A stretch of 64,000 bases of DNA from Candidatus Magasanikbacteria bacterium RIFCSPHIGHO2_01_FULL_41_23 (GCA_001782805.1 MFPT01000021.1:10546-74545); one strand, 5' to 3'. Counted from the stretch's first letter, positions 7,778-63,250 are shown. Numbers and translations are program-made. The notes: generated by a model from the letters alone, not told the origin.

Positions 7778-7887
7778 AGACAAAACAGTATAGGGGCATT
7801 CTTGCTGGGAAGGACCATACAAAGACAAAACAGTGTACAGGATATTCCCTCATGATTACTTTCTAAAGTATACAACACTACAAATAG

Positions 7888-8922: not shown

Positions 8923-8956
8923 TACTCCTACGGCCATGTAATCAAATTTTTACCGC

Positions 8957-9385
8957 ATGCAACAATTTGTTGTTCCACAATTTATTGAAGTGGAAGATAA
9001 AATTTTCGGGCCGATTACGACTCGGCAATTTTTAATTTTATTGGCCGCGGGCACAGCCATATTTTTGTCGTATCGGTTTGGCGATTTGGCTTTATTTATT
9101 TTTACGGTTGTTTTTGTCGGCGGTTTTTCCGCGATTTTGGCTTTTGTAAAAGTGAATGGTCAAAATTTTCATTATTTTTTGCTGAATATTATACAAACCA
9201 TGCGCAAACCATCATTGCGCATTTGGCAAAAAAGTTACAATAAAGAAGAACTGAATTATTTGCGCAAGCGCGATGCCGATATTAAAATAGAGCCGCTCAT
9301 CGTGGTCACAGCAGTAAAAAAAGATCGGATTCGCGACTTGGCTCTGTTGGTTAATACGGGCGGTTTTTACAAGCCCGAGGAATAG
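8957..9385 (+). CDS. PrgI-family (VirB3-like) small membrane protein of Gram-positive-type conjugation / T4SS systems
   Basis: The N-terminus VPQFIEVEDKIFGPITTRQFLILLAAG matches the PrgI-family signature (VPK..ee.KIFG.T.RQ followed by two TM helices). It lies immediately upstream of the VirB4-like ATPase, as PrgI lies upstream of PrgJ. Confidence 0.65.
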   Translation: MQQFVVPQFIEVEDKIFGPITTRQFLILLAAGTAIFLSYRFGDLALFIFTVVFVGGFSAILAFVKVNGQNFHYFLLNIIQTMRKPSLRIWQKSYNKEELNYLRKRDADIKIEPLIVVTAVKKDRIRDLALLVNTGGFYKPEE

Positions 9386-9403
9386 CGCGCGTTCACCATA
9401 AAT

Positions 9404-10093
9404 ATGTCTGACGAAAAAATGAGAAAAAAAACCAAAAAACGGCCTTCATCACAGGCTCATTTGCCCATCGCGGAAATCAAAGACAGCGTGGTGATTTTAA
9501 AAGACGGCACATTGCGCGCGGTTATTTTGGTTTCCAGTTTGAATTTTGCTCTAAAATCCGAAGATGAACAAAATGCGATTATTTCCGCGTACGTTGGTTT
9601 TCTTAATTCACTGGATTTTCCAATTCAAATTGTAGTCCAATCGCGCAAATTGCAAATCAAACCCTATTTGGAAAAATTGCAGGGGATTGAACGGACACAA
9701 ACCAATGAATTGTTGCGCATCCAAACCGCGGATTATCGCGCGTTTGTGGAAGAGTTGGTGGAGATCGGGCAGATTATGACCAAACGTTATTATGTCATTG
9801 TGCCCTATGATCCGCTGAATAATCGGCGCAAGAATTTTTGGGCACGATTTAAAGAAGCGCTTAAACCGGGAATTACCATTCGTTTGCGTGAAGAGCGATT
9901 TCAGACACGCAAAAGTGAAATTGATTTGCGTTTGCGTCACATTATTGGCGGACTGTCCGGCATGGGACTCACCACAGTTCAGCTGGATACGCAATCTTTG
10001 ATTGAATTATATTATTCCACTTACAATCCGGATATCGCTTTTGCCGAAACATTGGGCACGATTGGCGATCTCCAAATTGAAGATATTTCATAA
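9404..10093 (+). CDS. VirB4/TraC-type ATPase, N-terminal domain (separate ORF; frame differs from the ATPase domain ORF)
   Basis: IKDSVVILKDGTLRAVILVSSLNF resembles the conserved N-terminal 'IxDGiixtkdGslxrvievepin' region of VirB4/TrbE/PrgJ. The stop at 10093 is followed 2 nt later by the ATG of the ATPase-domain ORF in another frame. Confidence 0.55.
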   Translation: MSDEKMRKKTKKRPSSQAHLPIAEIKDSVVILKDGTLRAVILVSSLNFALKSEDEQNAIISAYVGFLNSLDFPIQIVVQSRKLQIKPYLEKLQGIERTQTNELLRIQTADYRAFVEELVEIGQIMTKRYYVIVPYDPLNNRRKNFWARFKEALKPGITIRLREERFQTRKSEIDLRLRHIIGGLSGMGLTTVQLDTQSLIELYYSTYNPDIAFAETLGTIGDLQIEDIS

Positions 10094-10095
10094 GT

Positions 10096-11955: not shown

Positions 11956-11956
11956 T

Positions 11957-12150
11957 CCAATGCAACACCAAAACATCCACTATACCAATAAGCAAAATGG
12001 AGACGAATATACTTTTGCTGAAAGCTGAGTATATTGACTTGTTGAGAATGCATAATCCGTCAGACTATCAGTTGAACAAAAGGATATCGTTGAATTTTGC
12101 TTAAGACTTAGAATAAATAAAGTTTGATTAAGACTTAGAAAATGGAGTTT
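11957..12150 (+). repeat. Copy 1 of a ~200-nt dispersed intergenic repeat (second copy at 35643..35900)
   Basis: Near-identical blocks: AATGCAACACC..AATAAGCAAA.TGGAG.., GAAAGCTGAGTATA.TGACTTGTT.AGAATGCATAATCCGT.AGACTATCAGTTGAACAAAAGGATATCGT.GAATTTTG.TTAAGACTTAGAA..AATGGAGTTTG. There is an internal direct repeat TTAAGACTTAGAA. Confidence 0.7.
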
Positions 12151-12177
12151 GATTACGAGGGAATAAGATGCTATACT
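12149..12177 (+). promoter_or_regulatory. Putative sigma70-type promoter (TTGATT-17-TATACT) with the -10 only 8 nt from the ATG of the next gene (leaderless-like)
   Basis: Hexamers read directly from the sequence. Spacing 17 nt. ATG at 12186. Confidence 0.3.
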
Positions 12178-14244: not shown

Positions 14245-14378
14245 AAGGAAAAATTAAACATTACCAATGTAATCCTCAGTATCATATCACGAAAAAAAAT
14301 CTCCAGCAATGTGGTTTACCCTGAGCTTGTCGAAGGGAATTGTCCACATTTTTGGGGATAAATATCATTTTTCCATTA

Positions 14379-14783: not shown

Positions 14784-14873
14784 TGGCGGAGAGGGAGGGA
14801 TTCGAACCCTCGAGGGATTTGACTCCCTGCAGCTTTAGCAAAGCTGTACGATCGGCCACTCTGACACCTCTCC
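14784..14873 (-). tRNA. tRNA-Ser (anticodon GCU), class II long variable arm, CCA encoded
   Basis: The reverse complement folds as GGAGAGG..T-arm GGTTCGAATCC..CCTCTCC-G-CCA. Anticodon loop UUGCUAA. Long variable arm and G73 discriminator. Confidence 0.8.
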
Positions 14874-14930
14874 ATTTTTTATTTTTTTTGCTTGCTCTGA
14901 GCGATCCCGACATAGTCGGGAGAGTCGAAG

Positions 14931-15019
14931 GGCGGAGAGATAGAGATTCGAACTCTAGAGGCTCTTGCGAGCCCGGCAGTTTAGTAAACTGCTGCCTTAA
15001 ACCACTCGGCCATCTCTCC
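14931..15019 (-). tRNA. Class II (Ser-type) tRNA with atypical anticodon loop UUACUAA (apparent anticodon ACU); CCA not encoded
   Basis: GGAGAGA-U-GGCCGAGUGGUUUAAGGC-A-GCAGU-UUACUAA-ACUGC-long arm-UAGAG-UUCGAAU-CUCUA-UCUCUCC-G. The body closely parallels the adjacent tRNA-Ser(UGA). Its loop differs from the tRNA-Ser(GCU) loop only by A at position 34. Confidence 0.55.
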
Positions 15020-15094
15020 ATAAATTCTGATATTGTGGGCTTGCCCTGAGCGAGCGACTTGTGGTGAGCGGAGTCGAAACCAAGCGAGTCGAAG

Positions 15095-15183
15095 GGCGGA
15101 GAGAGTGAGATTCGAACTCACGGAGGACTTGCATCCTCAACAGTTTTCAAGACTGTCGCCTTAAACCACTCAGCCATCTCTCC
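15095..15183 (-). tRNA. tRNA-Ser (anticodon UGA), class II
   Basis: GGAGAGA-U-GGCUGAGUGGUUUAAGGC-G-ACAGU-CUUGAAA-ACUGU-long arm-GUGAG-UUCGAAU-CUCAC-UCUCUCC-G. Confidence 0.8.
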
Positions 15184-15282
15184 AGAACTTTATCCTATAA
15201 ACAGAAAAACTATAGCAAAATTAAGTATTTTTCGCAAGTGTATTGTGCCGTGATTTTTGCCATGATATACTCAAGTTGAACT

Positions 15283-19342: not shown

Positions 19343-19394
19343 AAAAAAGCCTTCTTCGACACGGGTTTATCCCGAGCTTGTCGAGGGAGGCTTT
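19343..19394 (-). terminator. Rho-independent terminator downstream of clpP (minus strand)
   Basis: On the minus strand: AAAAGCCTCCCTCGACAAGCTCGGGATAAACCCGTGTCGAAGAAGGC followed by TTTTTTT. The hairpin contains a copy of the dispersed GTTTA.CC.GAGCTTGTCGA.GG motif. Confidence 0.45.
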
Positions 19395-19397
19395 TGT

Positions 19398-20012
19398 TTA
19401 TATGACTTTATCCGCCAAACCATAGGCCACGGCTTCGGTTGGATCCATAAAATGATCGCGATCAGTGTCTTGTTCTATGCGACTGATTGGTTGTCCGGTA
19501 TGATCAGCCAAGATTTGATTGAGTCGGTCTTTAATTTTTAAAATGCGTTCGGCGTGAATTTTGATATCACTGGCTTGGCCTTGCGCGCCGCCCAATACTT
19601 GATGAATCATAATTTCGCTGTTGGGCAAACAAAAACGTTTGCCTTTTTGACCGGCGGCCAAAAGCACTGATGCCATGCTCGCGGCCAAACCAATACAAAT
19701 GGTGGAAACATCGGATTTTATATATTTCATGGTGTCATAAATCGCCATGCCGGCTGTGACCGATCCACCCGGGGAATTGATGTACAATTTGATATCTTTT
19801 TCCGGATCTTGGTTTTCCAAAAATAAAAGTTGCGCAATCACAATATTGGCCACATGATCATCAATTTCCGTGCCCAAAAAAATGATCCGGTCTTTGAGCA
19901 GGCGCGAATAAATATCATACGCGCGCTCGCCGGACGATGTTTTTTCAATGACAGTGGGGATGAGATATTGGGCGGTGGGCGCAATGGTATTTTTAATACT
20001 GGTATTATTCAT
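19398..20012 (-). CDS. clpP: ATP-dependent Clp protease proteolytic subunit
   Basis: Full-length ClpP pattern: [24 protein letters not shown], catalytic Ser region [14 protein letters not shown], and the His/Asp region. Confidence 0.9.
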
Positions 20013-20514: not shown

Positions 20515-22734
20515 TCAAACGGTCGTTGCCATTTCTTTTTTAAATCCACAGCCCTTGGTCGCACACTTAACCGTTCCTTTGGCGCCAAAGATAAGCGGAG
20601 CATAACACTGTGGACACATTTCTCCGGTTGGTTTGGTTGGTAAAATATTTTTGCATTCCGGATACTGATTGCAACTGTAAAAAATTCCACGTTTGCCTTT
20701 TTTCCCCACAAATTCTCCGACTTTACAAAGATTGCACATCACACCGGTTTTATTTTCTTTCTTTTTAATGTTTTTGCATTCGGGATATCCACTGCAACCA
20801 AGGAATGAACCAAAACGACCACGTTTGAGCGCCATTGGTTTGCCGCATTTTTCACAAACTTCTTTGATTTCATTGGCGAGCTCGGCCGCTTCTGCACTTC
20901 CTGGAATTGGTTTGGTGCTTTTGCACGTGGGATAATTAGTGCAGGCAATGAATTTTCCAAATCGGCCGATTTTTATGACCATGGCACTTTGGCATTTCGG
21001 ACAAATTTCATCGGTTTTTTCCTCGGTAATATCTTTTTTAACCAATGTTTCGGTTTTTTCAACAAGATTTTTGTGGAAAGGTTCATAAAATGTGGCGATA
21101 ATCGGTTGCCAATCTTTGGTGCCTTCGGCAATCGCGTCCAAATTTTCTTCCATTTTGGCGGTAAATTGATAATCCACAATATCGCCGAAATGTTCAACCA
21201 ACAAATCATTGACCACGAGCGCGATGTCAGTGGGTTTAAAGCGTTTATGTTCATCGCGTTCCACATAATTGCGATCTTCAATTGTGGCAATCGTTGGCGC
21301 GTACGTTGATGGCCGGCCGATGCCATATTCTTCCAAGGCTTTGACTAAAGTAGCGTCCGAATAACGCGCGGCTGGTTCGGTAAAATGTTGTTCTTTTTTT
21401 AATTCTGTGCAGGGAATAATCGCGTTGATTTTTAAATCCGGCAAAATCGTTTCCGTGCCAGTGTCGGGCATAATCGCCAGCCAGCCGGGAAAAAGAAGGG
21501 TTTGGCCGGTGGCGCGGAAAATATACGGATTACTGGCAATATCCACGCTTACTCGATTGAGTTTGGCCGCAGTCATTTGCGTGGCAACTGCGCGTTGCCA
21601 AATTAAACTGTACAATCTTAATTGATCGTTGCTCAAGTATTGTTTAATTGATTCCGGCGATAATCCGGCTTCGGTCGGGCGAATCGCTTCGTGCGCTTCT
21701 TGTGCGTTTTTGGATTTGGTGGCATAACGACGTGGTTTTTCCAGTGCGTAATCAGAACCGAATTTTTGCATTACAAATTCACGCGCGTCAGTCGTGAATT
21801 TTTCCGACATATTAAGCGAATCCGTACGCATGTAAGTGATAAGACCGGTATGTCCGGCCGCGCCCAATTCCACGCCTTCATATAATTGTTGCGCCAAACG
21901 CATAGTATTTTTGGCGGAATATCCCAAACGTTGATTCGCGGTTTGTTGCAGTGTGGACGTAGTAAATGGTGGTGGCGGAACACGCGCGGCTTCTTTTTTT
22001 ATAACGTCTTTAATGGTAAATGTCTTACCGACTAATTCGCTGATTATTTTTTGCGCTTCAATTTCAGTTTCAATACTCAATTTATGTAATTTTTTGTCTC
22101 CTATCGCAATGAGTGTTGCCGGAAATTCGTGCGGATGCGCATTAAAAATTCCAATAATACTCCAATATTCTTGGGTTTTAAAGGCTTGAATTTCTCGTTC
22201 TCGCTCCACCACCAAACGTACGGCCACTGATTGCACGCGTCCGGCGGATAATCCACGCGTTACTTTTTTCCACAAAAATGGGGATAATTCATAGCCAACC
22301 AAACGATCAAGTACGCGACGCGCTTGTTGTGCGTCTACTAATTTTTGATCAATGTGGCGCGGATTGGCAATCGCCGTATCCAGCGCGTGTTTGGTAATTT
22401 CATGAAATACTATTCGCTCGGCAGTTTCAACCGGAATGTTGCAGACGTGAGCCAAGTGCCAGGAAATGGCTTCTCCTTCCCGATCTTCATCAGTCGCGAA
22501 TATAATGCGGTCGCTTTTTTTTGCCAAGTCTTTTAATTTTTTTACTTGCGCGGCTTTTTCTTTGGGAATTATATATGTTGGCAAAAAAGTTCCGCCCTCA
22601 ATGTCAATGCCGATTTTGCTTTTGGGCAAATCACGAATATGACCGAAAGATGACTCGACTGTGTAGCCGCGTCCCAGAAATTTAGTAATAGTTTTGGCTT
22701 TGGCCGGAGATTCAACGATAACCAATGTTTTCAT
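20515..22734 (-). CDS. topA: DNA topoisomerase I with C-terminal C4 zinc-ribbon repeats
   Basis: Toprim N-terminus MKTLVIVESPAKAKTITKFLG. Active-site region around LITYMRTDS. Four CxxC..CxxC zinc-ribbon modules at the C-terminus. Confidence 0.9.
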   Translation of the reverse strand: MKTLVIVESPAKAKTITKFLGRGYTVESSFGHIRDLPKSKIGIDIEGGTFLPTYIIPKEKAAQVKKLKDLAKKSDRIIFATDEDREGEAISWHLAHVCNIPVETAERIVFHEITKHALDTAIANPRHIDQKLVDAQQARRVLDRLVGYELSPFLWKKVTRGLSAGRVQSVAVRLVVEREREIQAFKTQEYWSIIGIFNAHPHEFPATLIAIGDKKLHKLSIETEIEAQKIISELVGKTFTIKDVIKKEAARVPPPPFTTSTLQQTANQRLGYSAKNTMRLAQQLYEGVELGAAGHTGLITYMRTDSLNMSEKFTTDAREFVMQKFGSDYALEKPRRYATKSKNAQEAHEAIRPTEAGLSPESIKQYLSNDQLRLYSLIWQRAVATQMTAAKLNRVSVDIASNPYIFRATGQTLLFPGWLAIMPDTGTETILPDLKINAIIPCTELKKEQHFTEPAARYSDATLVKALEEYGIGRPSTYAPTIATIEDRNYVERDEHKRFKPTDIALVVNDLLVEHFGDIVDYQFTAKMEENLDAIAEGTKDWQPIIATFYEPFHKNLVEKTETLVKKDITEEKTDEICPKCQSAMVIKIGRFGKFIACTNYPTCKSTKPIPGSAEAAELANEIKEVCEKCGKPMALKRGRFGSFLGCSGYPECKNIKKKENKTGVMCNLCKVGEFVGKKGKRGIFYSCNQYPECKNILPTKPTGEMCPQCYAPLIFGAKGTVKCATKGCGFKKEMATTV

Positions 22735-22795
22735 ATTTCGGTTGACTCAATATAAATATCGCGTAGAGCATAGTGGATATTTAGCTGATTGTCAA

Positions 22796-25822: not shown

Positions 25823-25869
25823 ATTTCGATAGTTCAGCGAGTTCACTACAAGTAAACTCAATATAAATA

Positions 25870-29543: not shown

Positions 29544-29858
29544 ATGGAGGTTCAGTTTTTTGATAAAAAAATAGAAGAATTTATTGATCATTTAGATAAT
29601 ATTGTTAATCCGAAAGTATTTCGGGTAATTGCTCTTTTGGAAGAATTTGGACCAAGTCTAGGAATGCCGCAAAGTAAGAAAATTGGTCAGCGACTGTTTG
29701 AGCTCAGGATACTTGGTAAACAGCATATTCGTATTATATATACTTTTCATCGAGATTCGGCGATCTTGTTGCATGGATTTATTAAAAAATCAGAAAAAAT
29801 TCCTCTGAAAGAAATTTGCCTTGCCAAAGCTAAATTATCGGTTCTTGACAGAAGATAA
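29544..29858 (+). CDS. higB: Type II TA toxin, HigB-like (RelE/ParE superfamily, Gp49/DUF891-type)
   Basis: 104 aa. The pattern LFELRILGKQHIRIIYTFHRDSAILLHGFIKKSEKIPLKEI matches the HigB/Gp49 C-terminal signature. It precedes an HTH antitoxin, which is the HigBA gene order. Confidence 0.7.
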   Translation: MEVQFFDKKIEEFIDHLDNIVNPKVFRVIALLEEFGPSLGMPQSKKIGQRLFELRILGKQHIRIIYTFHRDSAILLHGFIKKSEKIPLKEICLAKAKLSVLDRR

Positions 29859-29880
29859 CATATACGTTATATTAATCTAT

Positions 29881-30156
29881 ATGAAAAACTTTTCAACTTT
29901 TAGGGAGGAACAGTTCAAAAAAAAACCAGGTCTTCGGGAGGCCTATGAAGCCCTTGGGCCGGAATATGAGTTAATTGCTCAGCTTATTCGGAAGCGTCTT
30001 AATAAAGGCCTAACTCAATCAGCCTTGGCCAAAAAAATTGGAACAAAACAGTCGGCGATTGCTCGTTTGGAGTCAGGAAACTATAACGCTTCGATTGCTT
30101 TCTTGGAAAAAGTTGCCAAGGCGCTGGATGCAAAGCTGGTCGTTTCAATTTTATAG
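29881..30156 (+). CDS. higA: HTH XRE-family antitoxin (HigA-like)
   Basis: Helix-turn-helix LTQSALAKKIGTKQSAIARLESGNYNASIAFLEKVAKAL. The ORF track extends the frame upstream to 29821, overlapping the toxin. The ATG at 29881 follows the toxin stop. Confidence 0.7.
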   Translation: MKNFSTFREEQFKKKPGLREAYEALGPEYELIAQLIRKRLNKGLTQSALAKKIGTKQSAIARLESGNYNASIAFLEKVAKALDAKLVVSIL

Positions 30157-35405: not shown

Positions 35406-35642
35406 ATGACAATAAATACATCAAGGAAATCAATTTAAATCGAATCAATTTAAGTCGACTTAAAATAAATCAAATCAACATGAATTTCAGTAATAGGTAA
35501 TTTTCTTTTCAGTAAAACTCGCTATTCTTCTCCTCTCCTCGTCTCTATCCTTATTGATATATTAAATCTACTTTAACCAAGTAAGCGGAAAGAAAGCTCG
35601 TACACATTACTAAAAAGAAAATTACCTACTACTGAAATTACC

Positions 35643-35900
35643 CCAATGCAACACCGAAAAATTTAATATACCTAATAAGCAAACTGGAGTGAGATCTTTT
35701 TCTCGATGCCCGAGCCTGTTTACCCTGAGCTTGTCGAAGGGTCGAGGGTCGAGAAAAACGGTCTCACGAAGTTTGCTTAAGACTTAGAAAGCTGAGTATA
35801 ATGACTTGTTAAGAATGCATAATCCGTTAGACTATCAGTTGAACAAAAGGATATCGTCGAATTTTGTTTAAGACTTAGAAAATGGAGTTTGCTTATGAGC
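35643..35900 (+). repeat. Copy 2 of the ~200-nt dispersed repeat (see 11957..12150), carrying a ~65-nt internal insertion of the short GC-rich repeat family
   Basis: Blocks align with copy 1 at ~85-90% identity. Extra segment ..GCCCGAGCCTGTTTACCCTGAGCTTGTCGAAGGGTCGAGGGTCGAG.. is inserted between the first two blocks. Confidence 0.7.
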
Positions 35901-36089
35901 AAACAAAGCATGAATTTTGATTACAATTTGGCATATAAAAAATATAAAAGTCCAGTGTTTACCGGACTTTTATATGACACGTAGAAGTTTTGCCAATGAA
36001 GCACTGGCTCACTACCCTTTAATGTAAATTATATCAAGATTTATTATTTTGTCAAATAAAAAACACAACGAGAAGTTGTGATTTTTAGG

Positions 36090-36166
36090 TGGTGGACCTG
36101 ACGGGAATCGAACCCGTTCTACTACGTGTCAAGGGTAGTGTGCTCAACCAGATACACCACAGGCCC
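36090..36166 (-). tRNA. tRNA with short variable arm, CCA encoded, anticodon loop CUUGACA (apparent anticodon UGA); isotype uncertain
   Basis: GGGCCUG-UG-GUGU-AUCUGGUUGA-GCAC-A-CUACC-CUUGACA-CGUAG-UAGA-ACGGG-UUCGAUU-CCCGU-CAGGUCC-A-CCA. The stem has a C31.C39 mismatch, position 37 is C, and there is one acceptor-stem G.U pair. Confidence 0.55.
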
Positions 36167-41989: not shown

Positions 41990-43726
41990 TTAGACGGCGG
42001 ATTGTTGTTTAGAACGTTGTTGTTTTAATGTAGTCAGCAGTGATTGATTTATTATTCTAAACCGTTGTTGAGCCAATTTGGCAATTTGCTGGCTGATATT
42101 TTTTAATTTTTTTCGTTTTTCATCACGTTCTTTTTTCTTTTTTTCCATTTTTTTATCAAGATCTGCAATTTTTAGGTCTACGGCTTTCCTGAGAACTTGG
42201 GGGATATTGGAAGCAGTCCAAACCATGGGCGCAATCGGGACAATGAAGAGAAAAATAATCGTCGCGGCCAGAATTGCGGCTAAAACTTTTATGAGAATTT
42301 CAATTGCCAATAATGTCCAGCTGGCAATGGTTAATGCTTTGTGTTCTCGTTCCAAGGGCTTAAGAAATTCATCGATGGTTTTGATTTCTTTTTGTAATTT
42401 TTTTTTGTCTTGGTTAAGTTGTTCGGCTTTTTTGTCTATCTCAGCGATTAACTGTTTGTTCCGTCGTTCATTAAACTTTTGCATTAGTATACCACGTTGT
42501 TGGAGATTTTGTCCGCTCGTTTGTTGTTGAGTCGCATTTTGGTTTGGATCTGTTGTAGTTTGGTTTTGTGGCTGGCCTGATTGGGAATTTTGATTTTGTC
42601 CCGACGCGTTGGGATTAGTTTGTCCTGATGCTTGTTCTTGATTCTGTCCATTTTGTCCGCGTGGTTGGGGATGGCCGGCATCATCTGTCTTAACCAGTGG
42701 TTCGCCAAGCGAAGCTTGATCGTCTTGGTTGGCAGTCATGGGATTTTTTTCCGGTTCCGGTGGTTTTTCTTCGGGAGTTGGTTCTTCCGGCTTTTTTTCT
42801 CCCTCCGATTCTCTTTCTTTTGCTTTTTCCGGCGCGTCTTCTTTTGATTTGGCGTCGTCCTCTTCTTTTTTTCTCTCTTCATCAGCTGACGGATTTGATT
42901 TGTCTGATTCAGTTTTTCCACCTTCAGGAGTTGGTGCTCCTTGTTTTGTTTTTTCCTGTTCTCTTTCTGGTTGTTTTTCTTCCGGTGTTTCTCCAGGATT
43001 TTCTGCATTAGTTGGAGTTTCAGTCGGAGAAGGAGTTGCTTCCTCTTCTGGTTTTGTTTCGGCTTGTTCAGAATTTGGTGTTGATTCGGCATTTTTATTC
43101 GCGGAACGATTATCGGCTGCTTTATCCGCGCCTTGTTGCATTCGATCTTTTTTTTGTGGAGCCCCTCGACTTCCCTCGACTCCGCTCGGGACAAGTTGCT
43201 CGGGGTAAACTGGTTCGGCTTGATCCGGTTCAACATCAGAATCATCAGGTATTTCTTGGTCATCATTGGCCGCTTCATCTGTTGACAGTGAGTCTGCCGA
43301 ATCTGTTGGATCAGCGCCAAAAGAATTAATTGCATCCGTTGGATTTATGCCACTATCAGGCATTTCCACATTATCATTGGCCGCGCTGTTTATGTTAAAT
43401 TCATCAGCCAATAATTCTTCTGCTTCTTTTTCCGCAATTGTTTCCGCAACCGCATTTGCCACTTCTTGATCCAGCATTTCTTTGGTTTCCATTTCTAAAT
43501 TAGTGTTTGCCGCCACTTGATCCACCATTTGTCGGCCAATTTGGGCAATCAAATCAGTTACTTTAGTCAGTCCTGATCCGCGTATTTCACTGGAGCTGAC
43601 GGTTTTTTTTAAAATATTTTCCGCTTGATTATTTTGGCCGCTCAAATAATCGCCGACTCCTTGGGAAATTGGATCGGGTTTTGCTGGATCTGGTTTACGT
43701 TGGGGTAAAGCCACAGCCGAATTCAA
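41990..43726 (-). CDS. Hypothetical acidic low-complexity protein with C-terminal coiled-coil and TM helix
   Basis: 578-aa ORF with long E/K/P/T/Q-rich disordered stretches. TM helix LAIEILIKVLAAILAATIIFLFIV near the C-terminus. Carries an in-frame copy of the short GC-rich repeat (peptide ..LVPSGVEGSRG..). Confidence 0.5.
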   Translation of the reverse strand: MNSAVALPQRKPDPAKPDPISQGVGDYLSGQNNQAENILKKTVSSSEIRGSGLTKVTDLIAQIGRQMVDQVAANTNLEMETKEMLDQEVANAVAETIAEKEAEELLADEFNINSAANDNVEMPDSGINPTDAINSFGADPTDSADSLSTDEAANDDQEIPDDSDVEPDQAEPVYPEQLVPSGVEGSRGAPQKKDRMQQGADKAADNRSANKNAESTPNSEQAETKPEEEATPSPTETPTNAENPGETPEEKQPEREQEKTKQGAPTPEGGKTESDKSNPSADEERKKEEDDAKSKEDAPEKAKERESEGEKKPEEPTPEEKPPEPEKNPMTANQDDQASLGEPLVKTDDAGHPQPRGQNGQNQEQASGQTNPNASGQNQNSQSGQPQNQTTTDPNQNATQQQTSGQNLQQRGILMQKFNERRNKQLIAEIDKKAEQLNQDKKKLQKEIKTIDEFLKPLEREHKALTIASWTLLAIEILIKVLAAILAATIIFLFIVPIAPMVWTASNIPQVLRKAVDLKIADLDKKMEKKKKERDEKRKKLKNISQQIAKLAQQRFRIINQSLLTTLKQQRSKQQSAV

Positions 43727-48481: not shown

Positions 48482-48739
48482 TTAATGGTAAATACTGTGT
48501 CGGCCGATTTTATAAAAAATATATTTATTTTCTTTTTCAATTTTAAAAATTACTCGGTAGTCTCTGGTGATGGAAAAAGACCAATGTTCATTCCACGATC
48601 CGTTTAACTTATGAGTCTTTAGGCTAGAATTGAAAGGATCTACACGAAAAATATCCTCCCTTTCTTTGAATGATTGCTGTATATTTTTTGGACATTTTTT
48701 GTAAAGTCGACAAAAAATAGGTAAATAAATAATTTCCAT
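48482..48739 (-). CDS. Type II TA toxin, RelE/YafQ family (paralog of 20005..20265)
   Basis: 85 aa. KTHKLNGSWNEHWSFSITRDYRVIFKIEKENKYIFYKIGRHSIYH aligns with the other toxin copy and with the RelE/StbE signature. Confidence 0.7.
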   Translation of the reverse strand: MEIIYLPIFCRLYKKCPKNIQQSFKEREDIFRVDPFNSSLKTHKLNGSWNEHWSFSITRDYRVIFKIEKENKYIFYKIGRHSIYH

Positions 48740-52555: not shown

Positions 52556-53614
52556 ATGTCCAAAGATTTACAAAAATTACATAATGAGAGTTTGGTGCAC
52601 ATTGCGACTGCGCTTGATTTGGCACAATTGGAAGCGGTTGAATTATCGTTATTTTCGCGCCAAAACGGTCGACTGACTATGCTCATGAAAGAAATAGCTA
52701 CTGTTTTGCCGGCGGAAAAAAAAGCGTATGGTGAATCTTGCAACACAGTAAAAGAAGAATTAATCGGTTCGATTGCCAAGCGTCGTGAAGAATTGACGAA
52801 TGTGCGCTGGAAAACAATTGCCAATGATGAGCGGATTGATCCCTCGGCTCCGCTCGGGACAAGTTCTTCGTCCATGACAAGAGCACAAAAAAAGAATTAC
52901 GGTTCGCTTCATCCCATAAGTCGCGTGCAATACGATTTGGAGGATTTGTTTACTTCCATGGGGTTTATGGTGCTGGATGGTCCGGAATTGGAAAGCGATT
53001 ATTATAATTTTGAAGCGCTTAATATTCCGGCCGATCATCCGGCGCGCGACATGCATGATACTTTTTATCTTAAAAATAATCCGAGTTGGGTAATGCGCAC
53101 GCATACCTCGCCGGTTCAAGTCAGAGCTATGGAAAAATATGGTGCGCCTTTACGCGCGATTGTTCCCGGACGTTGTTTCCGGAATGAAGCAACTGATCCG
53201 CGCCACGAGCATACGCTATATCAATTGGAAGGATTGGTGATTGATCGCGGTATTAATTTTGCGCATTTGAAAGGCATTATTGCCACAGTGGCCAAACATT
53301 TGTATGGAGGGGAAACCAAAGTTCGATTTCTGCCAAAATTTTATCCTTTTGTTGAGCCGGGAGTGCGCGGCGAAGTTACGTGTTTTTTGTGTCATGGCAC
53401 TGGCTGTCGCGTGTGCAAAAATACGGGTTGGCTGGAAATTTTTGGCGCGGGCATGATGCATCCGAATGTTCTCCGTGCTGGGAAAATTGATCCGGAAAAA
53501 TATTCCGGCTTGGCGTTTGGACTTGGTTTGTCGCGTTTGGTAATGCTTAAATACGCGATTCCGGATGCGCGCTATGCACTGGGCGGAGATTTGCGATTTT
53601 TAAATCAGTTTTAA
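52556..53614 (+). CDS. pheS: Phenylalanine--tRNA ligase alpha subunit
   Basis: Class II aaRS motifs: motif 2 ..FRNEATDPRHEHTLYQLEG.. and motif 3 ..GLAFGLGLSRLVML... Contains an in-frame copy of the short GC-rich repeat (peptide DPSAPLGTSSS). Confidence 0.9.
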   Translation: MSKDLQKLHNESLVHIATALDLAQLEAVELSLFSRQNGRLTMLMKEIATVLPAEKKAYGESCNTVKEELIGSIAKRREELTNVRWKTIANDERIDPSAPLGTSSSSMTRAQKKNYGSLHPISRVQYDLEDLFTSMGFMVLDGPELESDYYNFEALNIPADHPARDMHDTFYLKNNPSWVMRTHTSPVQVRAMEKYGAPLRAIVPGRCFRNEATDPRHEHTLYQLEGLVIDRGINFAHLKGIIATVAKHLYGGETKVRFLPKFYPFVEPGVRGEVTCFLCHGTGCRVCKNTGWLEIFGAGMMHPNVLRAGKIDPEKYSGLAFGLGLSRLVMLKYAIPDARYALGGDLRFLNQF

Positions 53615-57422: not shown

Positions 57423-57545
57423 AGTATTAAATTAAGAATTATTTTTTAAGTATAAGCCGTGTAAAAATTGTCGTCAACCCCACTTTACACTCTCTCCAAA
57501 AAACCGTACAATCCACTTTACTAGTTCGACAGGCTCACTATAAAT

Positions 57546-60500
57546 ATGACTGATTTTGTCCATCTTCATGTCCACTCGCATTATTCGCTCTTGAATGGCT
57601 TAACCAAAATAAAAGCCTTGGTTAAGGCGGCGAAAGCGCGGGGATTTTCCGCTTTAGCATTGACTGATTATGGATCAATGTATGGCGCTATTGAATTTTA
57701 TCAAGCGTGTTTGGCCGAAGGAATTAAACCGATTATTGGATTTGAAGCATACATTGCTCCACGAAGTAGACTTGATAAAGATCCGGCGCATGATTCGACA
57801 TTGTATCATTTAATATTACTCGCGGAAAATTATAATGGCTATAAAAATTTAATGAAGCTGTCGTCGTTTGGCCATTTGGAAGGATTTTTTAATGGGAAAC
57901 CACGCATTGATAAAGAATTGTTGCGGAAATATCATGAAAATATAATTGTTTTGTCCGGACCGATTGAAGGCGAAATTCCCACATTAATAAAAAATGGTGA
58001 GATTGCCAAAGCCAAAGCAGTGGCGCGGGAATATCAAGAAATGTTCAGTTCGACTTCGCTCACCGCGAGTGGATCGGATTATTTTTATTTGGAATTGGAA
58101 GATCATCCGGCAATCTCCGGCCAAATTGAAGTGAATACTAAATTAATTGAATTGGGAAAAGAATTGGGAATTCCGTTGGTGGTAACGCGTGATGTACATT
58201 ATTTAAATCCGGATGATGATGAGGCGCAAGATATTTTGCGTTGTATTGCCGAAGGTTGGCGCGTGGATCAGCCGAATAGAATTGATTATCGCGGCGTTGA
58301 TCGGTCGTTCGCGACTGGCGATGATATTGCCGCGCGTTTTCGGCATGTTCCGGAAGCAATTGCCAATACGATAAAAATTGCGGAGCGTGTGAACATTCAA
58401 ATAGAATTAAACAAATGGCATTTTGCGCCAGTGGAATTACCTCCGGGCAAAACTGCGGACGATGTTTTGGCCGAAGAAGCACATAATCGCGTTACGATTT
58501 ATTTTAAAGAAAAAACGGCTGAACTTACTGAACGTTTGAATTATGAATTGGAAATTATTAAAACAAAAAAATATTCGCCGTATTTTTTGTGCGTGGCGGA
58601 TTTTGTGCGTTATGCCAAAGATCATGGGATTGTGGAATCAACGCGTGGTTCAGCCGCTGGTTCATTGGTGTCGTATGTTATGGGAATTACGACTGTGGAT
58701 CCGATGCGATTTAATTTGCCGTTTGAACGATTTTTAAATCCGTTTCGTCCCAGTCCACCGGATGTGGATACGGATTTTGCCGATGATCGTCGCGATGAAA
58801 TGATTGAATATGTCACGAAAAAATATGGCGCGGATAAAGTGGCGCAAATTATTACGTTTGGAACTATGGCCGCGCGCGCCAGTGTGCGCGATGTTGGTCG
58901 TGCTTTGGGATTCGCGTATTCTTTTTGCGATCAAGTGGCCAAATTAATTCCGCAAGGCGCGCAAGGTTTTCCCATGACGATTGGTCGCGCACTGACGGAA
59001 GAACCGGATTTGAAAAAATTATATGAACAAAACGCGGATGTAAAACGTTTGTTGGATTTGGCGCGAAAAGTTGAAGGCTGTGCGCGGCATACTTCCATTC
59101 ATGCGGCCGGAGTGGTGATTGCGCCGACCGCGCTGATGGATTTTTCGCCCGTGCAATATGAAACCGGTGGCACGCGGATTACCACGCAATATGAAATGAA
59201 ATCCGTGGAAGCGGCCGGAGTTTTAAAAAATGATTTTTTGGGAATTCGCAATTTGGCGATTTTGGGAAACGCGGTGGAATTCGTGAAAAAAACCACGGGT
59301 CAAGAAATTGATATTTATAATTTACCGTTGGACGATGCCAAAGTTTATGAAATGTTGGCGCGCGGAGAAACGATGGGTGTTTTTCAGCTTGGTGGTTCGG
59401 GTATGACGCGCTGGCTAAAAGAACTGAAACCAAACCGGATTGAAGATATTATGGCCATGGTGGCGCTGTATCGTCCTGGACCAATGGAATCTATTCCCGA
59501 ATATATTCGCCGCAAATATAATCCTGAGGCGGTAAAATTTTTTGATTCGCGGTTGGAAAAAATTCTCGGCGCTTCGTATGGATTGTTGGTATATCAAGAC
59601 GATGTGATGTTGACTGCGATCGCACTCGCTGGTTATGATTGGATGGAAGCGGATAAGTTTCGCAAAGCCATGGGCAAAAAAATTCCCGAAGAAATGGCCA
59701 AACAAAAAGAACAATTTTATAAAGGTTGTCAGGAAATAGGCAAAGTAAAAAAAGATATTGTTGATGAAATTTGGCATGCGATTGAACCGTTTGCCGCGTA
59801 TGGGTTTAATAAATGTTTGGTAGGAGAGACTGAAATTGTGGACGCGGCAACCGGAGCAATAAGAACCATCAAGGAAATGTACGAGCAAAAATCGAGGATG
59901 TCGGTATTAAGTTTGTCGGGCTATAAGAAATTAATTAAAAGAAAAATAATTGATATCTATAAAAACGGGAAGAAGCCAGTGTGGGAAATTACTATTCGCA
60001 GTGGCCGGAAAATTACTGCCACGGGCAATCATCCCTTTTTAAAATTTGGCGGCTGGTTCAATTTAGAAAAATTATGTGTCGGTGATTTGATCGCCGTACC
60101 AAGAAAAATTGACTATCGGCCGAGTGCTGATTTAGATTCTAAAAAATTAAAAGTATTGGGCTATTTGTTATCAGAAGGAAATCTCTGTCATCCTTACGGC
60201 GTTTATTTTTATTCTTCAGTCGAGGTAGAAATCCAAGATTTTATTACCGCTGTAAAATCATTTTCTAATTCTAATGTTACGATTAATAGAAGTAAAAGCG
60301 CAGCAGCTGTCTATGTGGGGCAAATCAATCCCAAATTTAGGAACAATTTAATGTTGTGGCTTAAAGAGCTGGGTTTGTATAACAAAAAAGCCACGGAAAA
60401 ATTTATTCCCGAATTTATTTTCAAATTATCACCGGAAAAAATCGCAGTGTTGGTTGGATCGATGTGGCAGGGCGATGGCTGTGTACATGATGACAAAAAT

Positions 60501-62366
60501 GGGCAAATATATTACGCGACCAGTTCAGAAAAGTTAGCTCAGCAAATGCAACACTTACTTTTGCGGTTGGATATTTTGAGTACGATTTATACCAAAAAAT
60601 TTACTTATAGGAATGGCCTAAAAATTGGTTATACGATTAATATCAGCCGTTATAATAACTTGGCCAATTTTGCGCACACGGTGGGTCAACATTTATTGCC
60701 AAACAAAAAAATCATCTTGAATAATATTATTAAAAAAAATAAAATTCTGAATGGCACACTACACACTGGCGTGGCTCGAGGCAGTAAAGATGTTGTGCCG
60801 GCACAAATTTTGGAGTTGATAAGAAAAGAGTTGGGGCAGAAAGGAATAACCATAAAGACAATATCCCAAGAATTGAAAATAGCTGAAAGATTATTTTATC
60901 AAGATACAAAACGGAAAGGCTATTTGCGGGAGACAGTTGGGAAAATCGGCATCTATTTGAAAAGCACTAAATTGTTACAGGAAGCGCGTTCAGAATTGTA
61001 TTGGGACGAAATTGTTTCGATAAAGTCGCGGGGCATGCAAGAAACCTATGATTTGACTGTCCTAGGCGAACATAATTTTGTCGCCAATGATTTCGTGGTG
61101 CATAATTCGCATGCCGCCAGTTATGGCATTGTCGCTTATCAAACCGCGTATCTCAAAGCGCATTATCCGGTGCAGTTTATGACCGCCATTTTGCAAGCCG
61201 AAGCCAGTGATTTGGAAAAAGTGGCGGCCATTGTGTATGAGTGCGGACGCATGGGCATTGAAGTTTTGCCGCCGGACATCAATGAAAGTTTTAAAAGTTT
61301 TGCGATGGTTTCCAAACCCGGACTCCTCGACCCTGCTCAGGGTAAACCCGGTCGGATTCGGTTTGGTTTAAATGCGATTAAAAATGTCGGCGAACATATT
61401 TGTGAAGTTATTTATCGCGAACGCAAAGAACATGGCGCGTATCAATCTCTGGAAAATTTTTTGGAGCGAATTACGGATAAAGATTTGAATAAAAAATCAT
61501 TGGAAAGTTTAGTCGTGGCCGGAGCGCTGGATTGTTTTGGATTTGATCGCAACGTACTTTTTGCCAACAGCGAAAATATGTTATTTTTTTACCGACAAGC
61601 GCGCGACAGGGAATTGACCAAACAAGATTCATTGTTTGCGGCCACGGATATTAGTTTGGATTCCAAAGTAATGCTTAAGCCAGCGCCGAACGCGACGATG
61701 GAACAGAAATTAACTTGGGAAAAAGATTTGTTGGGATTATATTTGTCCGCGCATCCGTTGCATCCATTCGTGGATGCGTTAAAAGGTGTGGTGATTCCTT
61801 TAGCCGAAGTGGAATCTGCGCCGCGCGACAGTTGGGTCGTATGTTTTGGTGTGGTGGAATCCATCAAGAAAAAAATTACTAAAAAAGGCGATATGATGTT
61901 GTTTGTGGTAATTCAGGATTTGTCCGCCACAATGGAACTGTTGGTTTTTCCCAAGACGTACGCGCGCACCAAAGATCTGTGGTTGGAACGCGCGCTGATT
62001 TGTATTGTGGGGAAAACGCCGCGCGAAGAAGGAGAAAATAAAATTTTTGTGGAAAATGCCTATGAATTGCGGCGTGAAACTATTTCCGACTTGGCGCGGC
62101 AACTGGCATTATCCGTAGGGCAGAAATTAAATTCCGACGTTGGTGCCGTGCCCGAAAAATATCTGCGCATTATTTTGTCCGCGGATGAATTACAAACATC
62201 AGCCGAACCAATTAAAACCATTTTGGCCACGCATCCAGGAGATACGACGGTTTATTTGCAAGTAGGAACAGGTACGATTAAAGTGGGAACTAAAGTGAAT
62301 GCGAGCGAAGAACTTTTGTCCGAGTTGATTAAAATTTTAGGAGATGCAAAAGTTGAAATGTTTTGA
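57546..62366 (+). CDS. dnaE: DNA polymerase III alpha subunit (DnaE) interrupted by a full-length intein
   Basis: PHP domain HLHVHSHYSLL. Pol IIIalpha core motif FAAYGFNK / SHAASYGIVAYQTAYLKAHYP is split by the intein. OB-fold at the C-terminus. Carries an in-frame short GC-rich repeat (peptide KPGLLDPAQGKPG). Confidence 0.9.
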   Translation: MTDFVHLHVHSHYSLLNGLTKIKALVKAAKARGFSALALTDYGSMYGAIEFYQACLAEGIKPIIGFEAYIAPRSRLDKDPAHDSTLYHLILLAENYNGYKNLMKLSSFGHLEGFFNGKPRIDKELLRKYHENIIVLSGPIEGEIPTLIKNGEIAKAKAVAREYQEMFSSTSLTASGSDYFYLELEDHPAISGQIEVNTKLIELGKELGIPLVVTRDVHYLNPDDDEAQDILRCIAEGWRVDQPNRIDYRGVDRSFATGDDIAARFRHVPEAIANTIKIAERVNIQIELNKWHFAPVELPPGKTADDVLAEEAHNRVTIYFKEKTAELTERLNYELEIIKTKKYSPYFLCVADFVRYAKDHGIVESTRGSAAGSLVSYVMGITTVDPMRFNLPFERFLNPFRPSPPDVDTDFADDRRDEMIEYVTKKYGADKVAQIITFGTMAARASVRDVGRALGFAYSFCDQVAKLIPQGAQGFPMTIGRALTEEPDLKKLYEQNADVKRLLDLARKVEGCARHTSIHAAGVVIAPTALMDFSPVQYETGGTRITTQYEMKSVEAAGVLKNDFLGIRNLAILGNAVEFVKKTTGQEIDIYNLPLDDAKVYEMLARGETMGVFQLGGSGMTRWLKELKPNRIEDIMAMVALYRPGPMESIPEYIRRKYNPEAVKFFDSRLEKILGASYGLLVYQDDVMLTAIALAGYDWMEADKFRKAMGKKIPEEMAKQKEQFYKGCQEIGKVKKDIVDEIWHAIEPFAAYGFNKCLVGETEIVDAATGAIRTIKEMYEQKSRMSVLSLSGYKKLIKRKIIDIYKNGKKPVWEITIRSGRKITATGNHPFLKFGGWFNLEKLCVGDLIAVPRKIDYRPSADLDSKKLKVLGYLLSEGNLCHPYGVYFYSSVEVEIQDFITAVKSFSNSNVTINRSKSAAAVYVGQINPKFRNNLMLWLKELGLYNKKATEKFIPEFIFKLSPEKIAVLVGSMWQGDGCVHDDKNGQIYYATSSEKLAQQMQHLLLRLDILSTIYTKKFTYRNGLKIGYTINISRYNNLANFAHTVGQHLLPNKKIILNNIIKKNKILNGTLHTGVARGSKDVVPAQILELIRKELGQKGITIKTISQELKIAERLFYQDTKRKGYLRETVGKIGIYLKSTKLLQEARSELYWDEIVSIKSRGMQETYDLTVLGEHNFVANDFVVHNSHAASYGIVAYQTAYLKAHYPVQFMTAILQAEASDLEKVAAIVYECGRMGIEVLPPDINESFKSFAMVSKPGLLDPAQGKPGRIRFGLNAIKNVGEHICEVIYRERKEHGAYQSLENFLERITDKDLNKKSLESLVVAGALDCFGFDRNVLFANSENMLFFYRQARDRELTKQDSLFAATDISLDSKVMLKPAPNATMEQKLTWEKDLLGLYLSAHPLHPFVDALKGVVIPLAEVESAPRDSWVVCFGVVESIKKKITKKGDMMLFVVIQDLSATMELLVFPKTYARTKDLWLERALICIVGKTPREEGENKIFVENAYELRRETISDLARQLALSVGQKLNSDVGAVPEKYLRIILSADELQTSAEPIKTILATHPGDTTVYLQVGTGTIKVGTKVNASEELLSELIKILGDAKVEMF
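59814..61106 (+). mobile_element. Intein (431 aa) with LAGLIDADG/DOD homing-endonuclease domain, inserted in the conserved GFNK|SHAA motif of DnaE
   Basis: Starts with Cys (CLVGETEIVD), ends with ..VVHN, and is followed by Ser (+1). LAGLIDADG-like blocks LKVLGYLLSEGNL and IAVLVGSMWQGDG. The extein junction reconstitutes GYGFNKSHAASY. Confidence 0.85.
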
Positions 62367-62399
62367 CTTTTTGCCTAAATTATCCTAAACTATCAGTGT

Positions 62400-62606
62400 A
62401 TGTACAATTGGACAGTAGATATTAAAGAATTAAAAAAAGATAAAAAGCAGTATGCCATTTGGAAACTGGAACAGATGGTTAATTTTGGTTTGAACGGTAA
62501 AAAATTAAACAAAGCCGATTTGAAAAAGTACTGGTTACAGTTGAATTTAGATCCTAAAAAGAAAAAGTATCTGTCACTTATTTTATGGCCGGCAAAACAA
62601 TCTTAA
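62400..62606 (+). CDS. Hypothetical small lysine-rich protein upstream of the AbiEii-like gene (possible partner)
   Basis: 68-aa ORF overlapping the start of the next gene by 22 nt. No motif. Confidence 0.3.
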   Translation: MYNWTVDIKELKKDKKQYAIWKLEQMVNFGLNGKKLNKADLKKYWLQLNLDPKKKKYLSLILWPAKQS

Positions 62607-63250
62607 GTGAAAATCAACGAAAATTATTAAAAATAATCGGTAATAATAAAAATATCTGCCAATATTTTTATTTGACCGGGGGCACGGCTTTGGCGGAATT
62701 TTATTTGCACCATCGTCTTTCGGAAGACTTGGATTTTTTTTCCGAAGAAGAAATTGATTCTCAAATCGTATTTGCGTTTCTGAAATCAATTCAAAAATCA
62801 GCCGGAATAAAAAAAATCGATGCCCAACAAAGTTTTAATCGCAATTTATTCTTTTTACATTTGCCAGACGGCGATGTTATTAAAACTGAGTTTACTTACT
62901 TTCCTTTCCCCAGAATTGAAAAGAAAAATAAAATTGACAATTTGTTGGTAGATAGTGTGCTTGATATCGCAGTTAATAAAATTTTTACTATTTATCAAAA
63001 GCCGCGGGCGCGCGATTTCATTGATTTATATTTAATTCTTCAAATAAAAAAATGGGGAATAGCTGATTTAGTTAAAAAAGCCAAAGTAAAATTTGATTGG
63101 CATATTGATCTTCTGCAATTGGCAAGTCAGTTTTTGCAAGCCCGAGAAGTGAAGGATTATCCCAAAATGATTGATCCTTTGAAACCGGAAGTGTGGCAAA
63201 AGTTTTTTGAAGAAGAAGCAAAGAAATTAAAAAATCAAATAGTACAATAA
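62585..63250 (+). CDS. Nucleotidyltransferase of the AbiEii/AbiGii (DUF1814) type IV toxin family
   Basis: YLTGGTALAEFYLHHRLSEDLDFFS matches the AbiEii N-terminal GGTAL..R.SEDIDL nucleotidyltransferase signature. Confidence 0.6.
   Translation: MAGKTILSENQRKLLKIIGNNKNICQYFYLTGGTALAEFYLHHRLSEDLDFFSEEEIDSQIVFAFLKSIQKSAGIKKIDAQQSFNRNLFFLHLPDGDVIKTEFTYFPFPRIEKKNKIDNLLVDSVLDIAVNKIFTIYQKPRARDFIDLYLILQIKKWGIADLVKKAKVKFDWHIDLLQLASQFLQAREVKDYPKMIDPLKPEVWQKFFEEEAKKLKNQIVQ

Follow-up and report, generated by a model that had tools for sequence, protein, structure and literature searches.

Short hairpin repeats inserted in frame into essential genes of a Magasanikbacteria genome are probably ends of a compact GIY-YIG element

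Rickettsia palindromic elements (RPEs), reportedly described by Ogata et al. in 2000, are repeats of about 100-150 bp that occur only in Rickettsia and have no known associated gene, and the remodelling of core proteins by repeat DNA has so far been tied mainly to that genus. Correia elements (also Correia repeat enclosed elements, CREE) are 100-155 bp long, carry 26-bp terminal inverted repeats, duplicate a TA target and are found only in Neisseria. Repetitive extragenic palindromic sequences (REPs), their doublets (REPINs) and the REP-associated tyrosine transposase (RAYT) form a third system, in which small imperfect hairpins with a tail occur as singlets and as inverted doublets, with many copies per single-copy gene (Nunvar 2010, PMC2817692; Bertels and Rainey, PMC3337134). 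Here we analysed a family of short repeats in a 64,000-nt stretch of DNA (hereafter the window; 41% G+C) from Candidatus Magasanikbacteria, a bacterium of the Candidate Phyla Radiation (CPR). Copies of this repeat lie between genes and in frame within essential genes, and they are probably solo, nested or truncated ends of a compact element, found across bacteria, that carries a gene for a GIY-YIG nuclease.

An initial annotation of the window had placed related copies of the repeat at six sites, and all six were found at those positions or a few bases away. Three more copies, which it did not list, were identified here: G (15043-15097), H (57518-57544) and I (58047-58070). About 84 kb of DNA were read in total, namely the window and about 10 kb on each side of it, by means of the 221-kb contig MFPY01000010.1 of Candidatus Magasanikbacteria GCA_001782895.1, whose PheS is identical to that encoded in the window; in a strain comparison, all other assemblies with these genes were essentially identical to the window as well. 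A search for copies elsewhere in the genome, which the initial annotation had proposed, yielded several more in these 20 kb of flanking DNA, both intergenic and coding. The 13-mer GTTTACCCTGAGC has three exact matches in the window and six if as many as two mismatches are allowed, where 0.66 are expected and none of 100 shuffles reached six. A structural pattern of three complementary flanking bases around NGAGC, 0-6 nt and NCGAN matched seven times, against 0.68 +/- 0.77 (maximum 3) in 100 dinucleotide shuffles; beyond these seven copies, two more in the window are composite or carry a deletion. A covariance model trained solely on copies from other organisms also recovered seven window sites (E <= 0.034). 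These counts and the model agree that the repeats form a real dispersed family.

The unit consists of a short tail (GTTTAC in this genome), three or four free bases, the conserved TGAGC-YTG-TCGAA and the complement of the free bases. We read it as a hairpin with a stem of 3-4 bp, a T-A pair, tandem G.A/A.G mismatches, a G-C pair and a small loop. Across 1.9 Mb of DNA from loci of other organisms, the stem triplets that flank TGAGC-N3-5-NCGAA are fully Watson-Crick in 153 of the 277 cases other than CCC/GGG, whereas in shuffles the complementary cases averaged 20 and never exceeded 33. GGC/GCC, TGG/CCA, TGC/GCA, TCC/GGA and CAC/GTG are recurring triplets. The T..A to C..G switch occurs as a pair, in other loci as well as in copies B, E and F of the window, and over 48 nt copy E differs from a copy in tsaD solely in the outer stem, by two compensatory double changes (CCCCGAGC..TCGAGGGG vs CCGTGAGC..TCGAACGG). 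Nested units, with the order left-left-right-right, are common (copies C, E and G and the tsaD copy). The word palindromic, used of the repeat in the initial annotation, suits it weakly: the stem of the unit is 3-4 bp long and coding copies fold no better than shuffles, while copies B and C do lie in strong hairpins. The idea that every core caps a longer hairpin in its surroundings was discarded, since complementarity drops to near background past the first 3-4 pairs and long stems were seen in a subset only (B and C). Likewise, an origin from tRNA (which resembles the unit in AGCTCAG and GGTTCGA), from the 5' end of tmRNA, from a hammerhead ribozyme or from a kink-turn was rejected by eye, because the order of the parts or the core positions do not fit.

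At least 120 stretches of species-representative genomes, from more than 20 phyla, contain the exact 19-mer CCCTGAGCTTGTCGAAGGG, and so do at least 120 stretches of IMG/VR viral contigs, where we estimate that less than one would be expected by chance. The groups include Bacteroidota, Cyanobacteria, Actinomycetota, Alpha-, Beta- and Gammaproteobacteria, Nitrospirota, Chloroflexota, Acidobacteriota, Planctomycetota, Verrucomicrobiota, Myxococcota, NC10, Eremiobacterota, Zixibacteria, Armatimonadota and several CPR groups, and among cultured isolates it is present in Microbacterium, Microlunatus, Rathayibacter, Sphingopyxis, Porphyrobacter and Moraxella. The repeat had been presented as a genome-dynamics feature of this lineage, which an identical core in so many phyla and viral contigs contradicts. 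The flanks of the 19-mer are unrelated from locus to locus. A common form is an inverted doublet, in which CCGTTCG and a unit are followed by a spacer and by the reverse-complement unit with CGAACGG; tandem arrays occur too, and Sphingobium chromids carry up to 20 unannotated copies of an 81-nt doublet. The unit was found in none of 5,426 E. coli genomes.

In Rfam, the consensus of RF02901 (AaHKsRNA41, a small RNA (sRNA) of Aggregatibacter) contains the inverted unit doublet, GCUGAgCUUGcCGAAGC ... UUCGgCAAGcUCAgC. Our loci score 24-31 bits against it, where the gathering threshold is 97, and RF02901 matched nowhere in the window; it describes one genus-level sRNA and not the repeat itself. An Rfam scan of the loci gave sub-threshold RF02901 matches and spurious miRNA families only, and in the window the Rfam thresholds were reached by tRNAs only. 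Searches of the literature (in an index that covers few subscription journals) by the repeat DNA, by the encoded peptides and by GIY-YIG paired with REP, MITE, transposon or UPF0213 retrieved no description of the repeat.

The gene associated with the unit was seen at an Eremiobacterota locus (L184), where a GIY-YIG gene of ~95 codons is preceded by three units in sense and followed by three in antisense orientation. Among the 120 best homologues of its product, 27 have a unit-encoded peptide at the end or start of the protein (PSTSSG*, FDKLRVT, LRQAQGD, VTLSLSKG), compared with one of 390 DnaE and PheS controls. Flanking units were present in the DNA of all three further homologues inspected, one of which, in a low-GC genome, has the co-varied unit GTCA-NNN-CGAGCGCAGTCGAG-NNN, while another, from Rhodopseudomonas palustris, has a variant with an enlarged loop. 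In a gene-centred test, 80 metagenomic loci were picked by protein similarity alone. A structurally valid unit lies within 200 nt of the gene ends in 57 of these 80 loci, on both sides in 38, and unit density is 4.76 per kb near the gene ends but 0.14 per kb beyond 250 nt, a 34-fold difference. The units face inward: those upstream are mostly sense (52 vs 19) and those downstream mostly antisense (48 vs 29), often over the stop codon. The two ends of one element, tail included, resemble each other more closely than they do those of other elements, and the end-to-end span is 328-402 nt in 27 of 30 elements. A cultured Sphingomonas has the same unit-GIY-YIG-unit layout, with nrdR on one side and a gene for an RNA methyltransferase on the other.

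The flanked gene is a GIY-YIG family member (PF01541), and its product matches the solved UPF0213 proteins BH0048 and EF2693 at E=1e-9. UPF0213 is the group of YazA and YhbQ, with PDB entries 1zg2 and 1ywl. NCBIfam holds no model for this nuclease subfamily. Since the units form the inverted ends of the GIY-YIG element, the window copies are best read as solo ends. A complete element would span ~350-400 bp and consist of a hairpin terminal repeat, the gene for the ~95-aa UPF0213-type GIY-YIG protein and an inverted hairpin terminal repeat, and the outer tail of each end would be CCGTTCG in GC-rich hosts, TTGTCA in AT-rich hosts and GTTTAC in this genome. Ends without a gene would far outnumber complete elements and would take the form of single units, inverted doublets and nested stacks, comparable to REPs with their RAYT and to MITEs (miniature inverted-repeat transposable elements) with their parent insertion sequence (IS). 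On this reading, the nuclease presumably recognises the hairpin and drives or maintains its spread, and the source genome presumably has, or had, a unit-flanked GIY-YIG gene. More tentatively, the units could be the recognition ends of a so far undescribed pan-bacterial minimal mobile element of that length, with the ~95-aa GIY-YIG nuclease as its sole gene, whose gene-less ends have spread through more than 20 phyla and their phages.

A diverged type of unit was seen in two alphaproteobacteria, R. palustris BisB18 (L256, 1340-1400 and 1990-2050) and Methylobacterium bullatum (L339). Here the GIY-YIG gene is flanked by units of the form CATCCTGAGG-[GAGCCCGGCGC..GCCGGGCGTC]-TCGAAGGATG, in which the loop is expanded by a GC-rich hairpin of ~35 nt; units may thus grow by insertions into the loop.

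Several observations weigh against the assignment of the units to a GIY-YIG element. No GIY-YIG gene is present in the ~84 kb of the source genome that were read, and only two of 240 unit-containing loci have one within ~4 kb, so that the link depends on the gene-centred test; such a ratio does fit that of REPs to RAYT genes. By the strict pattern, 23 of the 80 GIY-YIG loci have no unit, and neither do three distant GIY-YIG loci from viral contigs. In Bacillus and Listeria, UPF0213 is a single-copy and presumably housekeeping gene, and we know of no GIY-YIG enzyme that acts as a transposase. No insertion or cleavage event was observed. Finally, isolated units are no more stable than shuffles by nearest-neighbour folding, which does not score G.A pairs, and only copies B and C are clearly structured.

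We also considered that the units are classical REPs or REPINs, moved in trans by an HUH (Y1) transposase of the RAYT type, with GIY-YIG merely a frequent neighbour. Tailed hairpins, inverted doublets with short spacers and the lack of target duplication are all as in REP/REPIN and IS200/IS605, and most copies are far from any GIY-YIG gene. This explanation is improbable, given that the bracketed gene is a GIY-YIG gene with inward-facing units, strong local enrichment and matched ends, that no GTAG-type tag was seen, and that REP families are species-specific whereas the core described here is identical across phyla. A search of the 240 unit loci found no Y1, RAYT or IS200-like open reading frame (ORF), a weak test that used approximate queries. 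An all-against-all comparison of the ORFs near these loci revealed no recurrent neighbour gene at all, apart from related prophage and gene-transfer-agent genes, whose recurrence is due to the sampling of IMG/VR.

Another explanation holds that the unit is a structured RNA or single-stranded DNA (ssDNA) motif, selected by the host for binding a universal partner and copied by template switching or gene conversion, and that GIY-YIG genes use it as a 5' and 3' signal. In its favour, the loop is strongly conserved on a covarying stem, copies B and C cap terminator-like hairpins, the RF02901 consensus contains the doublet, and microhomology is seen at the dnaE junctions. We nevertheless regard it as unlikely. 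The orientation of the window copies is not consistently related to transcription (G is antisense to tRNA genes, and D, F and I are antisense within genes), and the binding partner cannot be universal, as the unit is absent from E. coli. Moreover, matched inverted ends around one small gene typify a discrete element, and an RNA function cannot explain copies inside essential proteins.

The copies in dnaE, pheS and tsaD, read as ends of the GIY-YIG element, were compared with homologues. The initial annotation had read the dnaE and pheS copies as in-frame peptides, which is correct (+21 nt and +27 nt), and the alignments that it had suggested show that the extra peptides of DnaE and PheS are lineage-specific, being absent from the nearest homologues. 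At the site of copy D in dnaE, the window encodes KPG-LLDPAQG-KPG, where the closest homologues (85% and 82% identical) have KPGETG and QPHEQG and most close homologues among 120 aligned have KPGEPG or a near variant. In the DNA this corresponds to 21 extra nucleotides, CTCCTCGACCCTGCTCAGGGT, and the two closest homologues have the empty site AAACCGGGTGAAACTGGCCGT. The gap in this copy, previously given as 8 nt, is a deletion of 7 nt (TTGTCGA), which makes the length of the insert a multiple of three. The second dnaE site, that of copy I, has 24 extra nucleotides that encode SSTSLTAS; these residues have no counterpart in Pol III alpha of Taq and M. tuberculosis and are missing from the 60 best of 150 representative DnaE homologues. 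In pheS, copy F adds 27 nt and the nine residues PSAPLGTSS, which are shared with one 88%-identical relative only and are missing from all others inspected (the 68 closest of 120 aligned; the typical length of PheS is 343 aa). About 10 kb past the window end, a composite double unit and a second unit lie in frame in tsaD (L340, 13705-13800), by which TsaD gains ~18 residues relative to solved TsaD proteins, including PFDFPRLRSGQVAHGK (..KKPFDFPRLRSGQVAHGK..). Single inserts thus measure 21, 24 and 27 nt and composite ones 49-57 nt.

No target duplication was found at the three junctions that could be reconstructed (dnaE D, dnaE I and pheS). Of the five coding copies, four run antisense to their gene, and the sole sense copy is a CGAGC variant without TGA. 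A canonical unit that lies in sense brings a TGA into one of the frames, and both the antisense bias and the CGAGC sense copy are the expected residue of a filter for stop-free insertions whose length is a multiple of three.

The same DnaE loop as at site D carries an independent insert of this repeat family, ATGAGCGGAGCGAAG, in another CPR lineage, and an insert of a different palindrome in yet another. Other CPR lineages (P0032, P0021, P0095, P0116 and P0117) have long unrelated inserts of up to ~60 residues in this loop, some of which look repeat-encoded (SPQPSPYKGEG...), and the loop appears to be a general insertion hot spot or tolerant site. The dnaE gene of the window (57546-62366) also encodes, at 59814-61106, an intein of 431 aa (CLVGETEIV...VVHN|S) whose homing-endonuclease domain is of the LAGLIDADG type. 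This intein accounts for the DnaE length of 1606 aa; the gene thus hosts an intein and two repeat-derived peptide insertions.

The coding insertions might instead be ordinary variable loops whose similarity in DNA arose by chance or from composition, and indeed the length of the DnaE loop varies across the CPR and the acidic protein that contains copy E is of low complexity. This view is effectively refuted. Copy D equals copy C at 23 of 23 bases once its internal deletion is set aside, copies E and F are 90% identical across 31 nt, and copy E and the tsaD copy are near-identical over 48 nt. In addition, shuffles never reached the observed counts, and the nearest homologues lack the extra residues.

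Evidence for insertion of one unit into another came from copy C. A composite hairpin of ~80 nt, AAGCAAACTGGAGTGAGATCTTTTTCTCGATG-unit-TCGAGAAAAAYGGTCTCACGAAGTTTGCTT, is present in at least three copies in the ~84 kb read (window 35677-35778; L340, 14880-14960; L341, 8425-8508), one of which sits between the genes for ribosomal proteins L10 and L7/L12. The two paralogous hairpins in the flanks miss exactly 22 nt, CTGTTTACCCTGAGCTTGTCGA, and their tip is the plain unit CCCGAGC-ACG-GTCGAGGG. Comparison of the filled copy C with these empty paralogues shows that one unit entered the loop of another, and this accounts for the nested forms. In the mechanism that we propose for the GIY-YIG element, new copies would insert without duplicating their target and would often enter the loop of a hairpin that is already there, which may be another unit. 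In a genome as small as this one, insertions within genes would survive only if their length is a multiple of three, their frame is free of stops and the site is a tolerant surface loop, and such a filter would leave the peptides of 7-9 residues in DnaE (twice) and PheS and the longer one in TsaD.

The single copies in the window are as follows. Copy A (14314-14340, + strand) is a single intergenic unit, GTTTAC-CC-TGAGCTTGTCGAA-GG-G, with the exact 19-mer as its core (29.5 bits in the model, E=2e-5). It lies between radC (- strand) and a 101-aa ORF (+ strand) and falls within the loop between the arms of an inverted repeat, AATGTGG..CCACATT, at 14308-14350. Copy G (15043-15097, + strand), flanked by two tRNA-Ser genes, is a nested double unit, GCCCTGAGC..[TGGTGAGCGGAGTCGAAACCA]..GTCGAAGGGC, whose inner unit is weak in the model (E=1.7) and which matches copy E in inverted orientation. 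Copy B (19365-19392, + strand; E=2e-5) is the variant CCCGAGCTTGTCGAGGG, with C..G in place of the T..A pair. It caps a hairpin with a 12-bp stem (~19343-19399) that has A and T runs at its flanks, folds as DNA at -18.8 kcal/mol (z=-7.35), lies between a 437-aa ORF and the convergent clpP gene and resembles a bidirectional terminator. Copy C (35677-35778, + strand; E=1e-6, fold z=-3.5) is the composite hairpin repeat of ~80 nt described above. Its tip unit is CCCGAGC-NNG-TCGAGGG, and the second unit, the 22 nt at 35716-35737, is nested in the loop of this tip unit.

Copy E (43162-43210, - strand; E=0.0016) is a nested double unit, GTTTACCCCGAGCaaCTTG[TCCCGAGCGGAGTCGAGGGA]agTCGAGGGG, and lies in frame in the gene for an acidic low-complexity protein (41990-43726, - strand), where it encodes the peptide PEQLVPSGVEGSRG. 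Copy F (52841-52867, - strand; E=7e-4) is the 27-nt insert in pheS (52556-53614, + strand), with the unit TCCCGAGCGGAGCCGAGGGA. Copy H (57518-57544, - strand; 27 bits, E=1e-4) is a single unit, TAG-TGAGCCTGTCGAA-CTA, that ends a few bases 5' of the dnaE start codon (57546). Copy I (58047-58070, - strand; E=0.034), with the unit CGG-TGAGCGAAGTCGAA-CTG, is the 24-nt insert in the region of dnaE that encodes the PHP domain. Copy D (61323-61343, - strand) is the 21-nt insert in dnaE that, with the next codon, reads GTTTACCCTGAGC^AGGGTCGAGG; its weak score in the model (E=1.6) is due to the 7-nt deletion. A possible decayed copy, which is uncertain, is found at 25826-25852 (- strand; E=0.085) directly 5' of the pth start codon, with the sequence GTTTACTTGTAG-TGAACTCGCTGAA-CTA. 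This sequence and a second weak unit-like one at 22730-22756 (also - strand) both end in ..CGAAATATG and abut the start codons of pth and topA, respectively; they could be decayed copies or a common feature of 5' leaders.

Other features of the window were noted in passing. A non-coding dispersed repeat of ~220 nt (11948-12166 and 35634-35906; 95% identical over 94 nt) contains the sub-repeat AAGTTTGNTTAAGACTTAGAA and may be a leader or a small RNA; its second copy includes repeat copy C. Three tandem tRNA-Ser genes are spaced ~150 nt apart on the - strand (14784-15184), with the anticodons GCT, ACT (unusual) and TGA according to ARAGORN, and a fourth, tRNA-Ser(TGA), lies 21 kb away at 36090-36166 (- strand). 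The cluster at 7274-11955 encodes NYN-domain, PrgI-like, TraC-like and VirB4/TraG-like ATPase proteins, and resembles the apparatus for type IV secretion, or a competence-like one, that occurs in CPR genomes; adjoining large ORFs of 1602, 417 and 314 aa have no Pfam match. Genes resembling toxin-antitoxin systems are located at 29544-30156 (Gp49/HigB with a partner of the HTH type), 48482-48739 (a weak YafQ-like match) and 62366-63250 (AbiEii with a small upstream ORF). An AbiEii gene also follows dnaE in the contig of the closest relative (L241).

Repeat or selfish DNA has thus remodelled core replication and translation proteins (DnaE, PheS and TsaD) in a CPR bacterium, and a single hairpin core of ~19 nt that is identical across most bacterial phyla and phage contigs appears to be unnamed. 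The repeat also pollutes gene calls, since more than one fifth of the nuclease family entries, among the best 120 homologues, end in repeat-encoded peptides, and a large group of spurious or chimeric metagenomic ORFs may be due to it. A new class of element, if it exists as proposed, would account for the metagenomic "junk" peptides PFDKLRANG, LSLSKG, VRPELVEG, LRQAQG and PSTSSG and would be a recurrent source of in-frame peptide inserts in essential proteins of reduced CPR genomes. Should the GIY-YIG nuclease mobilise the units, it would represent a new catalytic class of prokaryotic mobile DNA beside DDE, HUH, serine, tyrosine and Cas1 enzymes, the orphan UPF0213 family would gain a function, and a compact hairpin-specific nuclease could be of practical use. 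The origin of REP-like repeats would, in that case, become testable in a second, independent system.

In-frame insertion into genes had been taken as the hallmark of Rickettsia and Correia-like palindromic elements. The outcome is indeed RPE-like: short repeats lie both between genes and in frame within conserved essential genes, to which they add surface peptides while function is kept. Membership of either family is not borne out, because of size, host range and the lack of target duplication. Relative to RPEs, the inserts here are 21-57 nt long, the core is found across phyla and an element that carries a gene has the unit at its ends; the two were set apart on these grounds and not by direct comparison with an RPE consensus. 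Nor does the unit form the extended palindrome of an RPE, as its coding copies fold like shuffles. In contrast to Correia elements, the units measure 20-50 nt, show no duplication at three junctions and commonly occur as solo ends, and their parent has no known type of transposase.

Like a MITE and its parent, the unit, with the same tails, forms both ends of the GIY-YIG element and of the gene-less doublets, which consist of an end, a short spacer and an end. The small nuclease gene, as a discrete insert in varied contexts, recalls free-standing GIY-YIG homing genes such as the seg genes of phage T4. Such homing genes, to our knowledge, are not accompanied by hairpin terminal repeats or thousands of gene-less ends, and for the single-copy UPF0213 genes of Firmicutes we know of no reported repeats. 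Hairpin ends and the lack of target duplication are shared with IS200/IS605, as are a presumed single-strand intermediate and insertion at exposed ssDNA such as hairpin loops, but the element lacks a Y1 or TnpB gene, and no tetranucleotide could be defined as its target. REP/REPIN and RAYT also have a short imperfect hairpin with a conserved tail, doublets, a gene between inward-facing repeats and no target duplication. The system described here differs from them in that there is no GTAG tag, the loop is identical in more than 20 phyla and four of the window copies lie inside ORFs, whereas REPs are extragenic by definition. Most formal features are therefore common to the two systems, and the defining one fails because the flanked gene encodes a minimal GIY-YIG nuclease and not an HUH (Y1) transposase.

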